A stretch of 64,000 nt of DNA, from contig CAVPWJ010000182.1 in NCBI GenBank assembly GCA_963708955.1, positions 10,684-74,683 on the forward strand, read 5' to 3'. The notes under the pieces are model-generated. The model had not been told where the DNA came from and did no database searches. It was given only the letters and a program-made list of their open reading frames with translations. Positions 53,651 to 64,000 of this stretch are shown here, piece after piece. Each line of letters opens with the position of its first letter. Positions within the stretch are counted from its first letter, which is position 1. The stretch is from an uncultured delta proteobacterium. GTDB taxonomy: Bacteria; Desulfobacterota; Binatia; JACPRU01. Position numbers and translations under genes: made by a program.

Positions 53651-54307
53651 CTACCGCTTGCGGACGAGGGTGAGGCCGTCGGCGATCGGGACCAGGGCGA
53701 GATCGACGCGGTCGTCGCTGGCGATGTGCTCGTTCAGCGCGCGGATGATCTGCGTCGTCTCCGACTGATCCGTGGGGTCGGCGACGCCGCCGCCCCACAG
53801 GACGTTGTCGATGCCGATCAGCCCGCCGGGGCGCAGCCGCCGCAGGATCTCTTCGTAGTAGCTCTGGTAGGACGACTTGTCGGCGTCGATGAAGGCGAAA
53901 TCGAAGTGCTCGTTCAGCGGCAACGACCGTAGGGTGTCGAGTGCCGGCGCGATGCGCAGATCGATCTTGCGATCCACGCCGGCCTCCCGGAAGTAACGGC
54001 GGGCGACGGCGATCCATTCCTCACTGACGTCGCAGCAGAGCAGGCGCCCGTCGTCGGGAAGGCCGCGGGCGATGGAGATCGCGCTGTAGCCGGTGAAGGT
54101 TCCGACCTCGACGGCACGACGCGCGCCGATCGAGCGGACGAGCAGGGTGAGCAGCGCACCCTGGTCCGGCGCGATCTGCATGGCCGCGATCGATCCAAGC
54201 GCCGCCGTCTCCTCCGCGAGGCGGCGCAAGACGTCGTCTTGCCGCGCACCGTGCTCGACGACATAGCGGTACAGCGCTGGCGTCATCCGCAGGAACTTGT
54301 CGGGCAT
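53651..54307 (-). CDS. Class I SAM-dependent O-methyltransferase (caffeoyl-CoA OMT/YrrM-like)
   Basis: The SAM motif is VEVGTFTGYSA. The acidic FDFAFIDADK is typical of family 3 OMTs. Confidence 0.8.
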   Translation of the reverse strand: MPDKFLRMTPALYRYVVEHGARQDDVLRRLAEETAALGSIAAMQIAPDQGALLTLLVRSIGARRAVEVGTFTGYSAISIARGLPDDGRLLCCDVSEEWIAVARRYFREAGVDRKIDLRIAPALDTLRSLPLNEHFDFAFIDADKSSYQSYYEEILRRLRPGGLIGIDNVLWGGGVADPTDQSETTQIIRALNEHIASDDRVDLALVPIADGLTLVRKR

Positions 54308-54344
54308 CGTCGATCTCCGAACGCGAGCGGCCGACGCGCGGCCG

Positions 54345-55115
54345 TCAGTGCGACGTCTCGTCCTTTTTCATGCCTTGGATGTAGCTCGAGAGCTCGGCGT
54401 TGCTCTCGACGGCCTTGAGGAGCTGAGCCTGGAAGGTGGCGGCGGCGGATTCGAGCGGCGCCATGTCGATCGGCAGATCGATCCACTCGCGAAGCTTCAG
54501 CAACAGCGCTAGGGCGCCGCGCGGGTTCGGCGTTCCGGCGATGTAGTGGGGAATGGCCGCCCACAGGCTGAACAGCGGTAGCCCCTTGCGGTATACGCCG
54601 TCGGCGAGCGCGCTGGCGATCCCGGTCGGGCCCTGATAGGCGGTTGCGGATACCTTCAGACGATCGAGCAGCGCCGGATCGGAGGCGAAGCCGGTGAGCG
54701 GCACCGGATCGGTGTACATGACCTCGGAGAGGAACGCGCCGAGCAGAGCCACCTGTTCCACTTTCAGCTCTTCCATGAGACGAACGACGTTCCCGCAGAA
54801 CGTCTTCCAGCGCAGGTGCGGCTCGGGCCCGACCGCGAAGATCAGGTTGTGCGCCGCCGAGAACTCGCACCCCGGCCATTGCAGGTGCCGGATCTGCTGA
54901 TCGCCCAGCCGCACCAGCGGACGCTGCACCGTGAAGTCGAAAAATTCCTCTCCGTCGATGGACGCGAACTTCTGCGCCTCGAGACGAGCCGCGACGTACT
55001 GGACGGCGGCGGTCGCGGCCGATCCCGCATCGCTCCACCCCGAGAATGCCATCACCAGCGTGGGGTGTTCGATCTCGGGACGAAAGTGGATGGTCAGGGA
55101 GTCTGCCGCAGCCAT
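54345..55115 (-). CDS. PAC2-family protein
   Basis: The N-terminus TLVMAFSGWSDAGSAATAAVQYV is typical of PF09754 proteins. The product is 256 aa. Confidence 0.7.
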   Translation of the reverse strand: MAAADSLTIHFRPEIEHPTLVMAFSGWSDAGSAATAAVQYVAARLEAQKFASIDGEEFFDFTVQRPLVRLGDQQIRHLQWPGCEFSAAHNLIFAVGPEPHLRWKTFCGNVVRLMEELKVEQVALLGAFLSEVMYTDPVPLTGFASDPALLDRLKVSATAYQGPTGIASALADGVYRKGLPLFSLWAAIPHYIAGTPNPRGALALLLKLREWIDLPIDMAPLESAAATFQAQLLKAVESNAELSSYIQGMKKDETSH

Positions 55116-55122
55116 TGTAACC

Positions 55123-55347
55123 TCAGCCTTCCGATGCGCCAGTCTTCGTCGCCGCGAAACCGAGTTGCTCGTGCCAGTCGAGGTGGACCTCGATGTCGTC
55201 GACGTCGATGGTGCACAACCGGTCGCGCGCGAGCGCGGCGCCGATCTGGCCGTCGCCCCACCCGCGCCGGGCGGCTGCCGCGCGCAGCGTGGCTTCGAAC
55301 GCGGGCCAGTCGAACAGCAGGCGAAATCGCGGGCATCTCATCATCAC
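55123..55347 (-). CDS. Small hypothetical protein upstream of the PAC2 gene
   Basis: A 74-aa ORF with strong GC3 bias ends 8 nt before the PAC2 start. No family is recognised. Confidence 0.35.
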   Translation of the reverse strand: MMMRCPRFRLLFDWPAFEATLRAAAARRGWGDGQIGAALARDRLCTIDVDDIEVHLDWHEQLGFAATKTGASEG

Positions 55348-55447
55348 CTCCGCGTGGCCGCGCAGCGGTCACCGAAACGCCGTCGGCCTATCGAGGCATC
55401 GAATCTCATGTCTTCGTGCGGGAGTAAGTAGATTGTGCCGTGGTCGA

Positions 55448-56446
55448 TCATCGGACCGGCGTGGCGCGCCACACTACTCGATCGTCTTTCTCGACCTTCT
55501 CGGCGCGGCCGTCTCGCCGCATGTGCTCGAGATGCGCAAGCGTCTCGAACGTGGCGGGGAACTGCTGCTGGTACGGGCTCTGTGGCGTCAGGTCGAAGGC
55601 CTCGATCGCGATCTCGTAAGCGGTGCGCGGCCGGCCGCGGGCGAGATCGAGCATCACCTGCATGCGATATTCGTGGAACTCGAGGAGCTGAGTGACGCGC
55701 TTACGGTGGTCGTGGTAGACGGCGCCGTGAGCCGAAAGAACGGTCTCGACGTCGAGATCTCCGATCTTACGCAGCGACGCGAGGAAGTCGCCGAGCGGGT
55801 TTCCCGCGGGGTCGGAGGAGATGCCGACGTGCGGCGTGATCTTCGGCAGCAAATGATCGCCGACCACCACCACCTTTTCGCGGCGGAAGTACATCACGCA
55901 GTGACCCGGGGTGTGCCCCGGCGTCCATACCACCTCCATCGTGCGCTCGCCGACGGAGATGCGGTCTTGATCGGCCAGCGGACGATCCGGCTTCGCCGGC
56001 GCGTACATGTCCTTCCAGAACTCGCCGGGGCTCGGCAGGTTCGCGAAGTCTTCGATCGGGATGCCGTTTCGCTCGAAGAAGCGAAACGTCTCCGCGCTGC
56101 GCGGCTGCGGCAGGTACGTGGCGACGAGATCGACCTCGAGGGGGTGGAGAAAGACCTCGGCGTGGCAGAGCTCGCGGTAGGGGTGCGAGGTGCCGAAGTG
56201 ATCGGGATGGTGATGCGTGCAGACGATCTTGCCGATCTGCTCCGGCCGGCACCCGACCTGGTCGAGCGCGGCGCGGAAAGCGGCGCGGCTCTCCGGCGTG
56301 CTCATGCCCGTGTCGATCAGCGCCCATTCCGATCCGCCGTCGATCAGATAGACGTTGACGATCGTCGGCTTCATCGGCAACGGTAGGTGGATCAGGTGGA
56401 ATCCGTGAGCGACTTCTCGGACCTTGACGTCGGTTGGCTCGGACAT
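55448..56446 (-). CDS. MBL-fold metallo-hydrolase
   Basis: HHHPDHFG (the HxHxDH motif), a later His in TPGHTPGH, and the C-terminal Asp/His ligands. The product is 332 aa. Confidence 0.85.
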   Translation of the reverse strand: MSEPTDVKVREVAHGFHLIHLPLPMKPTIVNVYLIDGGSEWALIDTGMSTPESRAAFRAALDQVGCRPEQIGKIVCTHHHPDHFGTSHPYRELCHAEVFLHPLEVDLVATYLPQPRSAETFRFFERNGIPIEDFANLPSPGEFWKDMYAPAKPDRPLADQDRISVGERTMEVVWTPGHTPGHCVMYFRREKVVVVGDHLLPKITPHVGISSDPAGNPLGDFLASLRKIGDLDVETVLSAHGAVYHDHRKRVTQLLEFHEYRMQVMLDLARGRPRTAYEIAIEAFDLTPQSPYQQQFPATFETLAHLEHMRRDGRAEKVEKDDRVVWRATPVR

Positions 56447-56449
56447 CGG

Positions 56450-56662
56450 CTATTCGTGAGTCTGGTCCTGGATCACGAACGTCACCTCGACGCGGACCCG
56501 CCAGCGGATCACCGCATCGTTCTCGACCAAAGCGACGGCTTCGAGCACCTTCGCTTGGCGGATCTGCTTCACGGTGAGCGCGGCGCGCTTGATGGCGAGG
56601 TTGACCGCATCCTCGATGCCGATCGCCGAAGTGCCGATGAGGTCGATGGTCTTCTCCACCAT
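56450..56662 (-). CDS. Dodecin-family flavin-binding protein
   Basis: ATG at 56662 has an AGGAGA SD. The 70-aa product MVEKTIDLIGTSAIGIEDAVNLAIKRA...RWRVRVEVTFVI matches the dodecin fold consensus. Its stop is 4 nt from the MBL hydrolase start. Confidence 0.8.
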   Translation of the reverse strand: MVEKTIDLIGTSAIGIEDAVNLAIKRAALTVKQIRQAKVLEAVALVENDAVIRWRVRVEVTFVIQDQTHE

Positions 56663-56711
56663 GGCGGGGCTCTCCTTACCGCGTCGCGGTGAATGCCGCG
56701 AGACGAGACTA

Positions 56712-57428
56712 GTGGCTAGAACCCGCGAATTCAACACGAGCCTCTCACTCGTGCTGCTCGGCGCGCTCGTGAGCGCCCGCGTGGGAGCGGACGAGATCCG
56801 CAAGTGGCGCGACGCCGACGGCAACCTGCACTACAGCATCACCGGTTCGGCCGGCGCCGGCGTGCGTGGCGGTAAAGTTGGGGTGATGAGCGGGCGGGAG
56901 CCGACGGCCGACGAGAAGTTTTCGATCGAGGCGAGCCTGCGGCGGCGCGAGATCGAGCGCAAGCTGACCGCTGCCGGACGCGAGCTGGTGGAGACCCGCC
57001 AGCAGCTCGACCGGGCGGAGGAGAAGCACTTCGAGGCCTGGGTGCCGGCGGTGACGCGCGACCCGCGCTCCGCTCAGGCCTCGCTCGACGCGCAGCGCGA
57101 CGCGCTGCTCGCCGCCGCGCAGTTCGATCACGAGAAGGGCGAGACGCTGCGCCGCTTGCGCCGCCAAGAGCGCCAGCAGTTGAAGCAGTTCGCCGAGCTG
57201 TGGACGAGCTTCGCTGCGCTCGGCGCGGAGGTTCGCGCGCGCTACGGCACGCAGCCGCCGTGGTGGCGGGAGCGGCTCGATTGCGGCGCTTGCCCGAGCG
57301 CCGCGGAGGTCGACAAGGCACGGCACCCCGAGCGACCGACGCCGTCCACCGGAGAGCCGAGCGCGAAGACGACGACTCCCGGCCCTGGCGAAGAAGGCGA
57401 CGACGAGGACTGGGAGGAGGAGCAGTGA
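56712..57428 (+). CDS. DUF4124 domain-containing secreted protein (paralogue of 2517..3116)
   Basis: GTG start. The signal peptide SLSLVLLGALVSARVGA is followed by the DUF4124 signature IRKWRDADGNLHYSI and a coiled coil. The C-terminal RYGTQPPWW is followed by CGAC and an acidic tail. Confidence 0.65.
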   Translation: MARTREFNTSLSLVLLGALVSARVGADEIRKWRDADGNLHYSITGSAGAGVRGGKVGVMSGREPTADEKFSIEASLRRREIERKLTAAGRELVETRQQLDRAEEKHFEAWVPAVTRDPRSAQASLDAQRDALLAAAQFDHEKGETLRRLRRQERQQLKQFAELWTSFAALGAEVRARYGTQPPWWRERLDCGACPSAAEVDKARHPERPTPSTGEPSAKTTTPGPGEEGDDEDWEEEQ

Positions 57429-57447
57429 GAGGGGCGGCCGCCGGCGT

Positions 57448-58506
57448 TCAGGCGTAGTGCGACCGACGCTTCAGCGCGATCGAGCGCTCGAGCTGGAACA
57501 CCTCGGCGCGCTCCCAGCTCTCGCCTTTCTTCACCGGTTTGAAGCCGCGCAGCGTGGTCTCGACGATGCCGAGGTCGGCCCGGCCGGGAAAGTCGCGCTG
57601 GCCGCGAATCTCGGTTGACGCGAACAGCGTATCGCCCGCGAACACCGGGCCGCTGTGACGCCCCGTCGTGTACTCTACGTCGCCGAGCGAGTTCTCGCCC
57701 ACGTCCGGCGAAGACAAGCCGAGGAACACGTCGAAGGCGATGCCGCCGTAGACGACGAGCTGGCCGCCGAGGTAGCGCCCGGGGCTCTGGTCGATCAAGA
57801 ACTGGTTGCAGTGGATCTGCGAAGTGTTGTCGAGCTGCGCGGTGAGCGCGATGTGCTCGGTGGTGATCGTGCGCCCCCGCGAGTGCTCGATCGTGTCGCC
57901 GACCGCCAGATCCTCGAAGTAACCGTCCGGCGAGGAGAGGTGGGCGAGGGATCGGTAGTCGCGCTTCTCGTCGTAGGACGGCAGCTCGAGCGAGCAATCG
58001 ACGTGGGGCGACGGGATCGCCGCGTCATCGACCTTTGCCGCCGGGTCGCTCTTCCACACCTGGACCTTGCGCTCGAACGTGATCACCAGTGCGCCGTCTT
58101 GATTCCGGCCGCTCGAGCGGACGTGCACGATGCCGCGGTCGGGATCCTTCGACGAGGGCTTGACGCCGAGGACCGTAGTCTCGACTTCGATGGTGTCGCC
58201 GACGACGACCGGCGCGCCGAAGCGCATGCCGATGTACTCCAGGTTCGCGCGCGCGTTCTCGGAGACGTCTTCCACGGTCTGGCTGAAGGCGACGTTCATC
58301 ACCAGCCCCGGCGGCACCACCAGATCGCGAAACCCGTAGGCCCGCGCGTAGCGCCGATTCTTCGACAGCGGGTTGGTGGTCATGGCGAACTCGCTGAAGG
58401 CGTTGAACAGGCCCTCCGTCACGGTCTTGCCGCGGCGGTGTCGGAAGGTTTGTCCGACGAGAAAGTCATCGAGGAAGTTGCCGGTCTTCTTGCGGATGAT
58501 CGCCAT
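57448..58506 (-). CDS. MaoC-like (R)-hydratase with two hot-dog domains (mesaconyl-CoA hydratase-like)
   Basis: The 352-aa product has two MaoC dehydratase halves. It lies 90 nt downstream of the giant coiled-coil gene on the same strand. Confidence 0.8.
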   Translation of the reverse strand: MAIIRKKTGNFLDDFLVGQTFRHRRGKTVTEGLFNAFSEFAMTTNPLSKNRRYARAYGFRDLVVPPGLVMNVAFSQTVEDVSENARANLEYIGMRFGAPVVVGDTIEVETTVLGVKPSSKDPDRGIVHVRSSGRNQDGALVITFERKVQVWKSDPAAKVDDAAIPSPHVDCSLELPSYDEKRDYRSLAHLSSPDGYFEDLAVGDTIEHSRGRTITTEHIALTAQLDNTSQIHCNQFLIDQSPGRYLGGQLVVYGGIAFDVFLGLSSPDVGENSLGDVEYTTGRHSGPVFAGDTLFASTEIRGQRDFPGRADLGIVETTLRGFKPVKKGESWERAEVFQLERSIALKRRSHYA

Positions 58507-58595: not shown

Positions 58596-61500
58596 TCACG
58601 CCTTTTCGGGCGGGACGAGCCGTCGGACCACCGGAGCGAAATCGAGCGGCGTCTCTTCCGCAAGCGCCGTCAGGCGCTTCAAGAAGAATGCCGCGCTCGG
58701 GCTCTGCGCCCCCGGCGGCAGCACCAGCAGCACCGGCAGCGCTTCGAGGCGGTTCGAGCGACGCGCCTTGACGACGAGCCCGGCGCCTTCGCCGCCGAGG
58801 CGAGAGAAATCGAACACGATTAGGTCCGGCTTGACGATATCGAGGATCTCGGTGCCCTGTTTCAAGTCGCCGGCGCTCGAGACGGAGCAGCCTTTGGCCG
58901 TCGCCCAGCCGTTCAGCTTGAGCACGCTGTCGAGCTCTTCGCCGATGATCGTCACCCGCTTGCCTTGGCCGAGCAATGACGACAGCGCTTGCGCGAAGTC
59001 GTTCTCCTCGACCGGCCGGATCAGGCATTCGACGTTGGGAAAGACGATTCCCTTGGCGCTGCCCGGCTTGTTCGCGTAGAGCATCAGCCGCGAGGCAGCG
59101 AGCGGCTCCTCGGTGCGGCTACGCAGCAACCCCTCGAGCCCGCCCCTGGCGGCGAGCAGGTTGACGGCCGTGTACGCGGGCGGCTCGCTGAGCGCGGTGC
59201 CGTTGTCCAGCGCGCATGCCTCGAACGCGGCGCCGCTGCAGGTCTGCGTGAACGCGTTGAGCGCCTGACCGGGATCGTCGAGCACGATCACCGTGCGGCT
59301 GGTCGGCCCTGTGGAGACGACGCGAGTTGCCACCGGCTTCGCCGTAGGCACGCTGGCCAACTGGGCCGCCGGCCGCTTGGCAGCGGCCGGCGCTGCGGAC
59401 AGCCGAGAAGCCGCTCGCAGCGCCTGGATCTCCCGGTCGCGCTCCTCGAGGTTCCCCTGCAGCTTTTCAGCGAGCGCCCGCCACCGCCCGCCCTCCGCTT
59501 CCAGGCCGCGCAGGTTGTTCTCGAGGCCGGCGATTCGCTGCCGGCCCGCCTCGAGCTCGCTGGCTAGTCGTTCGCCGTCGGCCTGGCCGCGCCGCACGGC
59601 GGCTTCGAGCGCCGCCGCCTGGGCGGCGGTCTCGCGCGTGCTTTCGCCGACCTGGCGGCGCTCGTTCTCGAGCGATCCGATCGCTTCGCGCAGGCGCGCG
59701 CGGCTGTCCTCGGCCGCCTTGAGCTCCGCGGCCAGGCGCTCGGCGCGCGTCGAAGCCTCGGCGGCGCGCAGATCGAGCTCGTAAATCTGCCGGTCCTTCT
59801 CGTCCTGCGTGGACGTGGCCTGCCGGCGCAGCGCCTCGATCTCCTGCGCCGAGGACCGCGCGGCCGCTTCGAGCCGCTGTGTCTGCTGCGCCGCTTCCTC
59901 GCTCGCCGCCTCGCGCTCGCCGAGGCTGCGCTGCAACGACTCGAGACGAACCGACAGCTCGTTTATCTCGGCGGAGCGCCGACCGAGCTCGGCGGCCATT
60001 GCTTGCGTCGTCTCCTGGGCGGCCGCGTTCTCCACGGCGAGCAGCGCGGCCTGTTGGCTGGCGTCGACCGTCGCGGCCTCCGATGCGGCGAGCTTGCGCT
60101 CCACTCCTTCGAGTCGGCGGACGATCTCTCGGGTGTTCTCCCGCTCGGCATCCGATTCCGTGCGCGACCGAGCCGCCGCCGCGCGCTCGGATTCAAGGGC
60201 CGCCTCGAGGCGGGTCACCGCCTCTTCGGCCGAGCCGCGGGCGCTCTCGGATTTCGCCAGCGTCGCCCGCAAGACCGCGACGACGTCGACTTCGCTGGCC
60301 TTCTCGGCGAGGTGGGCGCTCGCTCCCTGCAGCGACTGCTCCATCTCCTGGAGGCGAGCCGCCAGATCCTTGCGCTCGGCTTCTTGCTCGCGGCGGCCGC
60401 GCTCGGCTTCCTGAGCCTCGGCCCGAGCGCCGTCGAGCGCCGCCTGCAGCTCGCCCTCGCGCTGGGCTCGCCGGGCAAGCTCGGCGGTGATTTCACTGCC
60501 GCGGGACTGCGCGCTCTCGAGCGCGCCGCGTAGCGCGGCGAGCTCGCGCTCGAGCGACTGCGCGCGACCCGCGGTCTCGCCGTGCCGGTCGAGCGCAGCG
60601 GCAAGCTCGGCGCGCAGCCGAGCGTCGGCTGCGCGCGAGCTCTCCGCCTCCGCGCGCAAGTGCTCGAGCTCGGCGGCTTGTGCCTCGGCGGCTGCTCGCA
60701 GCCCGAGCATCTCCTCGGCGTGACGCTCGCGCTCGCTGCGCAGCGTTTCGCCGTCGCGCAGCAGGTTCCCCGTGGTGTCCTGGAGAGTGGCCACGCGGGC
60801 GAGCAGCGCGTCGCGCTCGCGGGTGAGGGCGTGGGACGCCTCCACGGCCTGGTCGAGGCGCGGGCGGAGATCGTTCAGCTCGGAGCCGAGCTTCCGCTCG
60901 TTCTCCTCGCGCGCGGCCTCGCGGGCGCGCAGCTCGCTTTCGTTCTTGGCGCGTGCCTCGAGCTCCGGCCGCAGATGCTCGAGCTCGGCGGCCAGCGTCT
61001 TGCGGCTGGAATCGGCCGCCGCCGCCCGCCGTTCGAGGTCCGCGCTTTGCCCACGCAGCCGTTCGATCTCGGTCGCCGAAGCCTGCCGCAGCGCCTCGAT
61101 CTCCGCGGCGAGGCGCTGCGCCTCGCCGCGCGACCGCTCGGCCTCGGCGTGGGCCATCTGCCGCTCGCTCTGGATCCGCTCGGCCTCGGCGCGCAACGCG
61201 GCGGCGTCGTGGATCACGCTGGCCATGGTCACCTCGGCGACCCGGCGGCGCTCGCTTTCGAGCGCGAGCTCCGAGCGGTACTGCTCGGTCTCACGCTCGA
61301 TCTCGCGCAGTACCTCCACGCGCCCGGCGAGCCCGGCGGCAAACTGATCCCGCTCGCGTTCCGCCCCCTCCGCGCGTTGTCGCAGCGACTCGATTTGGCC
61401 ACGCAACTCGGCCAGCGTGATCTCCGAGCTCTCCCGGAGCTGCGCGATCGAGTCCTCGGCCGTCTGGTACCGGGTCGCGGTCTTCTGGAGAGACGTGGTC

Positions 61501-62702
61501 AGTTGTTCGCGCTCGGCGCGCAGCTCGGCGATCTGATCCTCGCGGGCGCGCAAGCTCTGGCGCAGCGTTTCGGCTTGTTGCTCGGCGACCGACAGCCGAG
61601 CCGTCAGGTCGGCCCGGTCGGCTTCGGCGCCGTGCGCGTGGCTGGCGGTCTCGCCGAGCTGGCGCTCGATCGTCGCCAGCCGCTGCTCCAGCTCCGCGTG
61701 CGCGCGGTCCCGGCGATCGATCTCGCCGAGCGAGCGCTGGCCGCTCTCCACCGCCGACGCCAACTCCTCGCGCATGCGCGCTATCGCCAGCGCGAGCTTG
61801 CGGCCGCGCTCGGCTTCGGTGGCGCTCTGGTCGCGCAGCAGATCGCACTCGGACCGCGCGTTGCGCAGCGAGATCTCGTGGAGCGCCGCCTCGGACTTGT
61901 AGCGGTCGCGCTCGCGCGATACCTCGCCGAGCCGCCGCTCGAGCTCGGCCGACGTCGCGCTGCCCCCCACCGGGCGGCGCGACGATTCGACCAGCGATTC
62001 GAGCTCGCTGATCCGCGCGGTGAGCATGGCCCGGTCGCGGACCGCGTCTTCCCGCGGGGCCGAGATCGGCTGGGTCAGCACGTGGGGGGCCCGGGCTGGA
62101 GCACGAGACGGGGGGCGGATCGCCGTGCCGAGCAGCTTGCCGATTTCGCGCAGCGCCACCACGTCAGTCTCGTGGATGGCCCGCTTGCCGCTGCCGACCA
62201 GCAGCAGCGCCCCGGTCACCAGCCCGGCGGCGAACAGAGGCAGGACCGCCGCATTGGTGAGGACACCTTGGTCCGCGCCCTGGAGGAGCGGCGGGACGAA
62301 TGGGTTGTCACGCGGATGGTCGATGATGTACACGCGCCGCTGCAGCACGGCGTGGAGGGGCATGTCCCAGACGCCGCTCACCCCGCGGCGAACCAGGCGG
62401 ATGGCGTCGATCGCTGGCTGGGCGAGTCCCTCGTGGGCGAGCAGCGAGAGGCTCTGCGACTCCGAGTCGTAGCGTAGCAGCGCCCCGTGACGCAGGTGCA
62501 CCGCCTCGAGCGTCGCGGAAAGTGCCGCCGGTGCGGTGGCTTCGTCGAGCGTCGCCGCCGTCAGCGTCCGTAGATTATCGAGGGTCGCATTTGCCACCCC
62601 AGATGTTGCTTCTCGCGAGGAGGCGGCAGGTGGCGACGATGACATGACGGACCGACGTAGCGGGTATTCTTCGGCAGTGTGCCTCTCGATTTCCCGGAGC
62701 AC
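58596..62702 (-). CDS. Giant (about 1,350-aa) protein with an N-terminal GAF-like domain, about 850 aa of continuous coiled coil, and two C-terminal receiver-like domains
   Basis: Residues 40-200 are GAF-like (HEGLAQPAIDAIRLVRRGVSGVWDMPLHAVLQRRVYIID...). Residues 230-1090 are E/R/A/L-rich heptad repeats. The C-terminus has two CheY-like folds: the first, TVIVLDD...AVNLLA, has Asn at the phospho-acceptor position; the second, VTIIGEE...PDLIVFDF, retains Asp. The start is GTG 62702 or ATG 62645. Confidence 0.75.
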   Translation of the reverse strand: MLREIERHTAEEYPLRRSVMSSSPPAASSREATSGVANATLDNLRTLTAATLDEATAPAALSATLEAVHLRHGALLRYDSESQSLSLLAHEGLAQPAIDAIRLVRRGVSGVWDMPLHAVLQRRVYIIDHPRDNPFVPPLLQGADQGVLTNAAVLPLFAAGLVTGALLLVGSGKRAIHETDVVALREIGKLLGTAIRPPSRAPARAPHVLTQPISAPREDAVRDRAMLTARISELESLVESSRRPVGGSATSAELERRLGEVSRERDRYKSEAALHEISLRNARSECDLLRDQSATEAERGRKLALAIARMREELASAVESGQRSLGEIDRRDRAHAELEQRLATIERQLGETASHAHGAEADRADLTARLSVAEQQAETLRQSLRAREDQIAELRAEREQLTTSLQKTATRYQTAEDSIAQLRESSEITLAELRGQIESLRQRAEGAERERDQFAAGLAGRVEVLREIERETEQYRSELALESERRRVAEVTMASVIHDAAALRAEAERIQSERQMAHAEAERSRGEAQRLAAEIEALRQASATEIERLRGQSADLERRAAAADSSRKTLAAELEHLRPELEARAKNESELRAREAAREENERKLGSELNDLRPRLDQAVEASHALTRERDALLARVATLQDTTGNLLRDGETLRSERERHAEEMLGLRAAAEAQAAELEHLRAEAESSRAADARLRAELAAALDRHGETAGRAQSLERELAALRGALESAQSRGSEITAELARRAQREGELQAALDGARAEAQEAERGRREQEAERKDLAARLQEMEQSLQGASAHLAEKASEVDVVAVLRATLAKSESARGSAEEAVTRLEAALESERAAAARSRTESDAERENTREIVRRLEGVERKLAASEAATVDASQQAALLAVENAAAQETTQAMAAELGRRSAEINELSVRLESLQRSLGEREAASEEAAQQTQRLEAAARSSAQEIEALRRQATSTQDEKDRQIYELDLRAAEASTRAERLAAELKAAEDSRARLREAIGSLENERRQVGESTRETAAQAAALEAAVRRGQADGERLASELEAGRQRIAGLENNLRGLEAEGGRWRALAEKLQGNLEERDREIQALRAASRLSAAPAAAKRPAAQLASVPTAKPVATRVVSTGPTSRTVIVLDDPGQALNAFTQTCSGAAFEACALDNGTALSEPPAYTAVNLLAARGGLEGLLRSRTEEPLAASRLMLYANKPGSAKGIVFPNVECLIRPVEENDFAQALSSLLGQGKRVTIIGEELDSVLKLNGWATAKGCSVSSAGDLKQGTEILDIVKPDLIVFDFSRLGGEGAGLVVKARRSNRLEALPVLLVLPPGAQSPSAAFFLKRLTALAEETPLDFAPVVRRLVPPEKA

Positions 62703-62879
62703 AAGCGAATCCGTGGCGCGGTCAACCCGTGAGCGTCGGGGATTGCCGACGGCTCCAGCTCATATCGCGTTCGCGGATCGAGATCCTCGGCGACGAGCTT
62801 GCGCATTGCCCGGCGCTCCTCATGTAAAAAGTAGTTTTCGCGATCGGATCGTTCTACTTCGGACCACGTAGAGCCCGAG

Positions 62880-62899
62880 TTTGAACCACGTGGTTCAAA
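62880..62899. promoter_or_regulatory. Perfect 20-bp palindrome TTTGAACCACGTGGTTCAAA (candidate operator)
   Basis: The halves are exact reverse complements with a central CACGTG. It lies about 180 nt upstream of the giant coiled-coil gene start and about 350 nt from the nnrS start. An AT-rich tract (GTAAAAAGTAGTTTT, 62826-62840) lies 40 nt away. Confidence 0.45.
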
Positions 62900-62911: not shown

Positions 62912-63250
62912 TCAACGCCGTGCGTCGAGTGTCCGAAGGCCCTCTTCACGAGCCGCCGTCAGCAGCCGGTCATCGCAGGCGATCACCTGAACCTCCTCAC
63001 CGAGCTGCTCCTGTAGGCGCATCGCGGAGGCGAGGTGGATCGCATCGAAGCCGCGTAGCGGATGGCGCCGCGCCAAATCGCGGACGATGAGCAGTAGCGG
63101 GTCGGCGAGATCGACGCCGAGGTAGGCGCGCCAGTCGGTGTCTAGGGCGCGCGACGCCCCGCGGTAAGCGGCCGTGGCACATTGAAGGGCGGCGGAGTAC
63201 ACAAGCCGCAGCGGTTCGGCTCGTACTCCGGGAAGGCCACCTCGCGCCAT
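62912..63250 (-). pseudogene. PIN-domain (VapC-like) C-terminal half, probably N-terminally truncated
   Basis: ...LDTDWRAYLGVDLADPLLLIVRDLARRHPLRGFDAIHLASAMRLQEQLGEEVQVIACDDRLLTAAREEGLRTLD matches the C-terminal half of VapC toxins, with the catalytic D in ACDD. The N-terminal strand carrying the first conserved Asp is missing. The only in-frame Met start would overlap the divergent nnrS ATG by 2 nt. Confidence 0.4.
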
Positions 63251-64000
63251 GAGCAACGTCACGATCGAGATCGAAGCTTCGTTTCGTGACGCCGGCCCCG
63301 GCGGCCCCTGGCGCCGTGAGCCTTTCCGCATCTTCTTCCCGCTCGGCGTCGTGCTCGCCTGGGTGGGAATCGGGCACTGGCTTCTCTATGCGATCGGTCT
63401 GACCGCCAGCTACTCGTGCCAGCGCCACGGACTGGTGCAGACGCAGGCATTCCTAATGGCGTTCGCGGTCGGCTTCCTGCTGACCGCGCTGCCCCGCCGC
63501 ACGCAGGCCCCCCCGCCCTCGATCACCGAGATGGCCGCCGCGGCGACTGCGCTCATCTTGACCGCGGCGCTCGACGCGGCCGGAAACCGGGTGGCCGCTC
63601 AGGTAGCGTACGCCGCGCTCTTCGCGTTGCTGCTTCGGTTCGCGTTGCTGCGCTTTCTCGGCCGCGCGGCGGGCAGACGCCCGCCCGCGGCGTTCGTGTT
63701 GATCCCGATCGGAGCGATGCACGGTCTCGCCGGCGCGGCACTGATCGCCTGGTCGCCGACGCTACAAGGCCGGGCGTTGATGCTGCAGCTCGGTCCCTTG
63801 CTCGTTCAGCAGGGAGTCTTCCTGTGCTTCACGGTGGGCGTGGGGAGCCTGATCCTTCCGCTGATGGGCGGTACTCCTCCCCCTCCGGACCTCGGCGCCG
63901 CGCCGCGCGAGCGTGTCAAGGCGATCGGCTACGCCGCCGCGGGGCTCGCATTCCTCGCGACCTTCGTCTTCGAGGCCGCGGGATGGATCCGCGGCGGGCC
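63249..64000 (+). CDS. nnrS: NnrS-family membrane protein (partial; runs off the window end)
   Basis: Own translation from ATG 63249 gives MSNVTIEIEASFRDAGPGGPWRREPFRIFFPLGVVLAWVGIGHWLLYAI...HGLVQTQAFLMAFAVGFLLTALPRR... This shows the conserved PFRxFF N-terminus and multiple TM helices of NnrS proteins. It is not in the supplied ORF track because no stop occurs before the window end. Confidence 0.6.
   Translation, partial: MSNVTIEIEASFRDAGPGGPWRREPFRIFFPLGVVLAWVGIGHWLLYAIGLTASYSCQRHGLVQTQAFLMAFAVGFLLTALPRRTQAPPPSITEMAAAATALILTAALDAAGNRVAAQVAYAALFALLLRFALLRFLGRAAGRRPPAAFVLIPIGAMHGLAGAALIAWSPTLQGRALMLQLGPLLVQQGVFLCFTVGVGSLILPLMGGTPPPPDLGAAPRERVKAIGYAAAGLAFLATFVFEAAGWIRGG

Follow-up and report, generated by a model that had tools for sequence, protein, structure and literature searches.

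What might a bacterial protein do that carries a GAF domain at one end of a coiled coil of about 880 residues and two receiver-like domains at the other? The question is raised by a gene in the 64,000-nucleotide stretch of DNA that we analysed as a whole (hereafter the window; contig CAVPWJ010000182.1, positions 10,684 to 74,683, assembly GCA_963708955.1), which comes from an uncultured delta proteobacterium assigned to the Binatia. The giant gene lies on the minus strand at 58596..62702, with its stop codon at 58596-58598, and its maximal open reading frame (ORF) encodes 1368 aa from a GTG codon, from which residues are numbered here. The initial annotation of the window had proposed a phospho-regulated cytoskeletal or polar-landmark scaffold. 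The reading that we prefer, and to which we give slightly less than an even chance, is a cytoplasmic structural and signalling scaffold, in which a parallel dimeric tether of about 130 nm would carry a pair of GAF domains and a docking module made of pseudo-receivers that works independently of phosphorylation.

Long open frames arise easily at the composition of a GC-rich genome, and the giant ORF could be a spurious product of that composition; a 631-aa ORF indeed runs antisense to it at 60582-62477 (plus strand), wholly within the rod-coding region. Homologues, selection, codon composition and the terminal domains together refute this reading, to which we assign hardly any probability. A search of 5.8 billion proteins returned 14 full-length homologues of 1295–1383 aa, one an identical copy and 13 at 44–77% identity, so that the set spans 44–100%; the ORF, intact in the window, is unbroken in all 14. 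Those hosts that are labelled are metagenome-assembled genomes (MAGs) of a 'Candidatus Binatia bacterium' or a 'Deltaproteobacteria bacterium'. Pairwise dN/dS values against four homologues, which are rough because dS is close to saturation, were 0.12–0.44 for the GAF region, 0.32–0.56 for the rod, 0.27–0.48 for the first receiver-like domain (REC1) and 0.11–0.23 for the second (REC2). Every segment thus stays below 0.6, and purifying selection acts on the gene. The giant ORF has a higher GC content at third than at first codon positions (GC3 0.87, GC1 0.77), as in a true frame, whereas the antisense ORF shows the opposite (GC1 0.90, GC3 0.79); the minus-strand frame is therefore the coding one, and the antisense ORF is a shadow of GC-rich sequence coding for Ala, Arg and Glu, not a gene. 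Significant domain matches at both ends of the protein, described below, complete the case for the 1,368-codon frame that had been annotated.

The start codon probably lies further in than the GTG. Nearly all homologues begin at a Met that aligns with codon 20 (ATG, 62643-62645), and we therefore take this ATG as the probable true start, giving a protein of 1349 aa. One gene caller chose a GTG at codon 36 instead (1333 aa). An 81-aa ORF in another frame, at 62561-62806 on the minus strand, runs across the 5' end of the giant ORF, and on an identical public contig (L001, 1793-2038) it was called as a gene; the call is probably an artefact of the gene caller, tied to the choice of the codon-36 GTG.

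The N-terminal domain spans aa 55–195 (62118..62540; all segments of the protein lie, like the gene, on the minus strand). Over these residues it scored 35.7 bits (E = 1.2e-8) against Pfam GAF_2 (PF13185), whose gathering cut-off is 28.6 bits. The GAF fold consists of a six-stranded antiparallel sheet with helices on its flanks. An AlphaFold2 (AF2) model of aa 39–235 reached a predicted local distance difference test score (pLDDT) of 85.8, and a Foldseek search with it returned 177 matches at E <= 1e-3, led by solved GAF domains (5w10 with E = 6e-8; 3ci6 and 3o5y). As modelled, the domain is a GAF fold, and profile and structural searches agree with the annotated assignment. The family bears a signature in this domain, GL...W[DE][IM]PL...I...NPFVP...P, whose columns are invariant in distant members too; W112, P115, L116 and the NPFVP segment could be residues of a ligand pocket or of an interface. 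The only strongly hydrophobic stretch of the giant protein lies inside the GAF beta-sheet, and no membrane segment was found in it. The domain is followed by linker 1 (aa 196–220, 62043..62117), 25 residues with 24% Pro and a mean column conservation of 0.46, in which residues 169–178 of the model (aa 207–216) fall below a pLDDT of 50.

The rod occupies aa 221–1100 (59403..62042), delimited by composition, heptad register and a nearly gapless alignment. Its composition is 63% A/E/R/L, with only three prolines (244, 579 and 614) in 880 residues. In the profile of 14 sequences, hydrophobic periodicity at heptad positions a and d spans aa 211–1108 above the 95th percentile of shuffles; the test is home-made and weakly specific at this threshold, which the globular domains of the protein also pass over 58–61% of their length, and the evidence is accordingly taken from the long runs of constant register. 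There are six such blocks of 50 to 270 residues each (211-260, 253-429, 417-558, 543-812, 806-971 and 963-1108), separated by five stutter-like register shifts. With sustained a/d periodicity, constant register and few helix breakers, the rod is a heptad coiled coil. The initial annotation had described about 850 residues of uninterrupted heptads; the heptad rod itself stands, and 'uninterrupted' is slightly overstated because of the five shifts and the three prolines. If continuous, the rod would measure about 130 nm. Its alignment is nearly gapless in 13 of the 14 homologues, the exception being a single deletion in P0014. The most conserved island, identified by its invariant columns, is aa 461–504 (61191..61322, RVEVLREIERETEQYRSELALESERRRVAEVTMASVIHDAAALR), with I468, E469, E471, T472, E482, E484, R485-R487, A489, E490, T492, V496, D499, A500 and L503 invariant; its conservation marks it as a candidate site of partner binding or assembly. 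Linker 2, an Ala/Pro-rich segment (aa 1101–1135, 59298..59402) with a conservation of 0.44, joins the rod to the C-terminal module; its length varies among homologues, whose indels are concentrated there.

Rods of this kind invite another interpretation, namely a chromosome-organising or defence ATPase related to SMC, MukB or JetC. The giant protein matched the NCBIfam model SMC_prok_B (TIGR02168) with E = 8e-23 and the PADLOC model JetC with E = 2.4e-9, and several homologues are named 'chromosome segregation ATPase' in the JGI annotations. All these matches, however, fall within the rod, and the TIGR02168 score is 80 bits against a cut-off of 567. The giant protein contains no Walker A motif and no ATPase head or hinge domain, its ends being GAF and receiver folds, and no kleisin or JetABD neighbours occur at the examined loci. 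We rejected this interpretation as very improbable.

The C-terminal module consists of REC1 (aa 1136–1245, 58968..59297), delimited by profile, AF2 model and family alignment, and REC2 (aa 1246–1368, 58599..58967), delimited by profile, AF2 model and fold matches to PleD and other receivers. Both had been annotated as CheY-type domains, and they are more divergent than this label suggests. Pfam Response_reg (PF00072) gave no match at E <= 1 to the full-length protein, and the C-terminal fragment alone scored 13.6 bits, below the gathering cut-off of 30.2; the same model picked up 9 of 13 homologues, with a best E of 9.4e-4. With a profile built from the C-terminal 244 residues of the family, each half separately matched receivers in the PDB with E about 2e-4: the REC1 half matched 3c3m and the RpaA receivers (E = 2-3e-4), and the REC2 half matched the receiver 3n53 (E = 1.8e-4), with the acceptor Asp aligned with Asp. 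The AF2 model of the C-terminus (pLDDT 78.9; predicted template-modelling score, pTM, 0.80) contains two alpha/beta domains, which the pTM suggests are packed as one unit. In this model REC1 lacks α2 and α4, and the α3 region of REC2 is of low confidence; aa 1304–1317, after β3, have a pLDDT below 50. The best Foldseek match of the model is the tandem receiver of PleD (E = 1.2e-4, probability 1.0). Both domains are, as modelled, of the (βα)5 flavodoxin-like receiver fold; the annotated fold thus stands, while the Pfam threshold for a response regulator is not reached.

Whether these receivers could work as phosphorylation switches depends on their catalytic residues. A pseudo-receiver (PsR) has been defined as a receiver-like fold without at least one of five catalytic residues, with ALR as the subclass that lacks the acceptor Asp (PMC12632262). 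REC1 has D1142/D1143 as its acidic pair, Asn1181 (codon 59160-59162) at the acceptor site, Tyr1209 in the Thr position and Arg1229, followed by Pro1230, in the Lys position. REC2 has E1255/E1256 as its acidic pair and keeps an acceptor Asp, Asp1298 (codon 58809-58811); its Thr position holds Leu1328, followed by Pro1329 at T+1, and no Lys follows β5, Lys1342 being placed in the predicted helix α4. The Thr and Lys positions were assigned from the strand ends of the AF2 model and the sequence register, without superposition of coordinates. Judged by these residues, neither domain has the full quintet: under the published definition the modelled REC1 is an ALR, and REC2, lacking the Thr and Lys of the quintet, is a PsR. 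The annotated Asn in a first, pseudo-receiver domain and the Asp of 'DLIVFDF' in the second were both recovered, as Asn1181 and Asp1298, and neither residue changes across the 14 close homologues. REC2 also bears a family-invariant motif, D1279-x-K1281-Q1282.

The architecture extends well beyond the close homologues. The weak matches of the first search, P0015–P0022 (1121–2292 aa), show the same three parts. A profile of the tandem module searched against 1.84 billion cluster representatives found 130 clusters (50% identity) at E <= 1e-30; the best matches are proteins of 640–2540 aa with the module at the extreme C-terminus. Most of the long module-bearing proteins also have the N-terminal signature GAF (W[DE][IM]PL...NPFVP), with E from 1e-40 to 1e-60, and the two occur together in 86 complete proteins, separated by a spacer of 171–2115 residues (median 757) that is 67% A/E/R/L/Q. 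Over 176 modules, each of the 166 that align at the REC1 acceptor position has Asn there. At the acceptor of REC2, 90 modules have Asp, 77 have His and 9 have some other residue, and none of them has Ser or Thr in the Thr position of that domain. The best-conserved residues of the module are non-catalytic, an Asn-Leu pair in REC1 and DxKQ in REC2, the D-x-[KR]-Q motif being nearly invariant. Given the REC1 Asn, the pattern at the REC2 acceptor and Thr sites, and DxKQ, phosphorylation chemistry is not the conserved core of the module.

Three further observations concern family members elsewhere. A member of about 970 aa in a Candidatus Binatia MAG (L013, 7608-10886) has a far more canonical loop after the REC2 acceptor (VVDLDLPQRDG); this canonical-like loop suggests, at the level of sequence, that the ancestor of the module was a functional receiver, which decayed unequally among clades. 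In the 1860-aa protein P0015 (L016, 8001-13583), the rod is built of tandem repeats of about 100 aa (EIDRLRARLAEAEAGAAHEHRAREELE...), which suggests that rods lengthen through internal duplication; no DNA tandem repeats were found in the rod-coding region of the window. The signature GAF region occurs a second time, as a degraded copy (L012, 7884-8750), on contig CAVQIG010000009.1, which also carries a full-length homologue (L011). This copy is 60% identical over aa 67–268, with a scrambled stretch in the domain and neither rod nor C-terminal module, and the gene after it is unrelated and resembles a polysaccharide chain-length determinant. The copy is the remnant of a paralogue or else an error of long-read assembly.

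How might such a protein work? We propose that two chains would form a parallel homodimeric coiled-coil rod of about 130 nm, with a GAF pair tethered at one end and the compact tandem pseudo-receiver module at the other, each joined to the rod by a flexible Pro/Ala-rich linker. The rod would serve as a spacer or self-assembling element, fixed in length within a lineage and free to vary between lineages, and the two end modules would be the functional heads: the GAF head might bind a small ligand or a partner, and the pseudo-receiver pair might dock or dimerise independently of phosphorylation. The dimer orientation, the tethering function, the ligand, the partners and the cellular location are inferred components of this model. 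Several features favour a scaffold or tether. The end modules are co-inherited whatever the rod length, which is conserved within the clade and varies twelve-fold over the family; the receiver active sites are degenerate; and no catalytic or nucleic-acid-binding domain is present. Rigid allosteric coupling along the rod is unlikely because the junction linkers are flexible, poorly conserved and Pro-rich. In FrzS, the pseudo-receiver has lost autophosphorylation and docks SgmX, and the coiled coil alone suffices for polar localisation (PMC1974792, PMC9811614). By analogy, a polar-landmark or cytoskeletal role is plausible for the giant protein.

Several points weigh against a phosphorylation-independent scaffold. 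All 14 close homologues keep Asp1298 and the acidic pair at 1255 and 1256, and REC2 may support non-canonical phosphorylation or metal binding in the clade of the window. The Thr and Lys positions on which the loss of the quintet depends carry the assignment limit given above, as the coiled coil carries the weak specificity of the heptad test, and the family members all come from uncultured organisms. A rival reading is a phospho-regulated scaffold, in which an orphan histidine kinase would phosphorylate Asp1298 and thereby switch assembly, localisation or partner binding, with REC1 as an adaptor in the manner of PleD. Asp1298 is as invariant in the 14 close homologues as the acidic pair and aligns with the acceptor of a solved receiver; the tandem layout resembles that of PleD; the Binatia relative L013 keeps the more canonical loop; and response-regulator genes occur near some homologues (L007, L015 and L006). 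Yet the Thr site is Leu with Pro at T+1, no Lys follows β5, the segment after β3 is modelled with low confidence, and Response_reg scores far below its cut-off. Across the family the Thr site is never Ser or Thr and His takes the acceptor site in 77 of the 176 modules, and no kinase is conserved nearby. With Thr and Lys missing from REC2 and the acceptor divided between Asp and His, the phospho-regulation originally proposed is doubtful, and we consider phosphorylation of Asp1298 unlikely, even as the most plausible of the alternatives to the scaffold that we prefer; mutual binding of the two ends comes next, followed by an SMC-like ATPase or a spurious ORF.

Mutual end binding would be the most interesting outcome if true. 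The ends might meet within one molecule by an antiparallel fold-back that sets the GAF beside the pseudo-receivers, so that a ligand would gate the C-terminal module, or in trans, building head-to-tail filaments or a lattice. The signature GAF and the tandem module occur together in 86 complete proteins with any rod length, both ends are the most conserved parts (dN/dS of 0.1–0.25, against 0.3–0.55 for the rod), and the flexible linkers would permit docking. However, co-occurrence is equally expected of two independent scaffold heads, and the rod gives no sign of folding back: a hairpin apex was sought at its midpoint near aa 660, where the register runs unbroken from aa 543 to 812 and thus offers no support for one, and the register shifts are not mirror-symmetric around the midpoint. 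We therefore regard mutual end binding as improbable. A related idea, to which we likewise give only a small chance, is a new cytoskeletal element or 'molecular ruler', whose ends would recognise each other or two landmarks, with a GAF ligand gating end-to-end assembly or bridging over a distance set by lineage. Across the family the rod would set distances of about 25 to 300 nm, and this twelve-fold variation between fixed end modules bears on a spacer or ruler function.

The giant protein belongs to a sizeable family, still without a name, from uncultured bacteria of soil and sediment. Its C-terminal module marks out at least 130 clusters (50% identity, E <= 1e-30), none with a family model or a functional name. 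No model of the family was found in Pfam, NCBIfam or PADLOC, and full-text literature searches found no description of it or of a scaffold combining GAF, coiled coil and receiver; the labels in the source records are generic ones ('hypothetical protein', 'chromosome segregation ATPase', 'CheY-like'). The architecture, the tandem pseudo-receiver module with its own invariants, and the family itself therefore appear to be undescribed, in line with the initial annotation, which recognised no described family. Each part, the GAF domain, the coiled coil and the pseudo-receiver, is known in kind, and FrzS and AglZ provide a precedent for the working logic. Bacterial coiled-coil scaffolds that dock through degenerate receivers are few; the family would bring a third domain logic to this set, and it offers a clear natural example of pseudo-receivers with invariants of their own, Asn in REC1 and DxKQ in REC2. 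To our knowledge, Binatota is a phylum without cultured members, and the giant family is among the few candidate entry points to the organisation of its cells. Because the hosts are uncultured, tests will have to be heterologous or in vitro.

The genomic surroundings give no partner for the protein that is conserved across subfamilies. Neighbours were clustered at the 61 loci with a called giant gene, out of 76 loaded, which comprised the window, earlier loci and 62 JGI metagenome loci from a hand-built degenerate motif scan. Among the clustered loci, every neighbour family is confined to at most two of the seven giant subfamilies, and neither a kinase nor a partner with a role in motility or polarity is conserved close to the giant gene. 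In the window, a double-hotdog gene resembling MaoC and mesaconyl-CoA hydratase (57448..58506, minus strand; MC_hydratase/MaoC match) follows 89 nt downstream on the same strand; the initial annotation had placed it at 90 nt. The 89-nt gap contains no terminator-like site, and the hydratase gene has its own GGAGG ribosome-binding site. The two genes adjoin in the close clade, with genes inserted between them in the more distant clade members L004 and L006; beside the distant members P0016, P0019, P0015 and P0073 the hydratase is absent and the neighbours are unrelated. This absence, together with the lack of any neighbour family in more than two of seven subfamilies, indicates that the link is gene order at the level of the lineage; the synteny led us to reject functional coupling, and we treat the hydratase as a neighbour and not as part of the system.

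The hydratase belongs to a conserved block that follows the giant gene in the Binatia clade (53651-58506 in the window; also L002, L004 and L007). It comprises the hydratase, a divergent gene for a DUF4124-like hypothetical protein, dodecin, a metallo-beta-lactamase-fold gene and a 72-aa ORF, together with genes for PAC2, an O-methyltransferase and GTP cyclohydrolase I. The upstream side of the giant gene varies among close homologues. In a large distant subfamily (the L017 group, for example L045 and L064), genes for PTS-EIIA-like and SLT lytic-transglycosylase proteins repeatedly lie upstream and a Mur-ligase-family gene downstream of the giant gene, all on the opposite strand; this arrangement may point to a cell-wall connection or, once more, reflect synteny at the level of the lineage.

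A perfect 20-bp palindrome (TTTGAACCACGTGGTTCAAA, 62880..62899, unstranded) lies upstream of the giant gene, 178 nt from the GTG, 235 nt from the ATG and 12 nt past the stop codon of the upstream ORF. It is unique, and none is expected by chance. Having neither a loop nor a T-run, it looks operator-like and not terminator-like. The palindrome that had been annotated is thus real, but it is absent from all other homologous loci fetched; we rejected it as a conserved regulatory site and regard it as a local feature, possibly an operator. The end of the upstream 139-aa ORF (62912..63331, minus strand) resembles by eye the C-terminal half of a PIN (VapC) domain; the ORF has no Pfam match at E <= 0.01 and may be a degraded toxin gene.

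Among known systems, FrzS and AglZ of Myxococcus xanthus provide the best working analogy: they too join a long coiled coil to a domain of receiver fold in which catalytic residues have been lost. The giant protein differs from them in its layout. The order is reversed, running from GAF through coiled coil to a C-terminal pair of pseudo-receivers; the N-terminal GAF is extra, FrzS and AglZ having none; and two receiver-like domains stand in tandem. This reversed order with an additional GAF was correctly recognised at the outset, and it places the protein outside the FrzS/AglZ domain order. The C-terminal profile has no significant match to the FrzS receiver (E = 0.16–0.31), the hosts here are Binatia-type MAGs, and no Frz, Mgl or motility context occurs at the examined loci. 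PleD (REC-REC'-GGDEF) and ShkA share the tandem receiver module, and PleD is the best structural match. In the giant protein, by contrast, the domain without an acceptor Asp stands first, neither domain has the full quintet, there is no GGDEF or kinase output, and a coiled coil of about 880 aa carries the module. Among described PsR and ALR domains, REC1 belongs to the ALR subclass by its missing acceptor; both domains differ in falling below the PF00072 threshold, and their own invariants, Asn-Leu and DxKQ, lie outside the common substitutions listed in PMC12632262.

Crescentin, FilP/Scy and DivIVA are coiled-coil-rich cytoskeletal proteins without GAF or receiver-fold end domains. The giant protein resembles them in its long heptad rod with stutter-like shifts and in its lack of an enzymatic domain, and self-assembly is plausible; its GAF and receiver-fold ends set it apart, and no sequence relationship to them was detected. 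With SMC, MukB and JetC it shares a rod composition and heptads that yield weak profile matches far below the cut-offs, and it differs in having no ATPase heads, hinge or Walker A motif.

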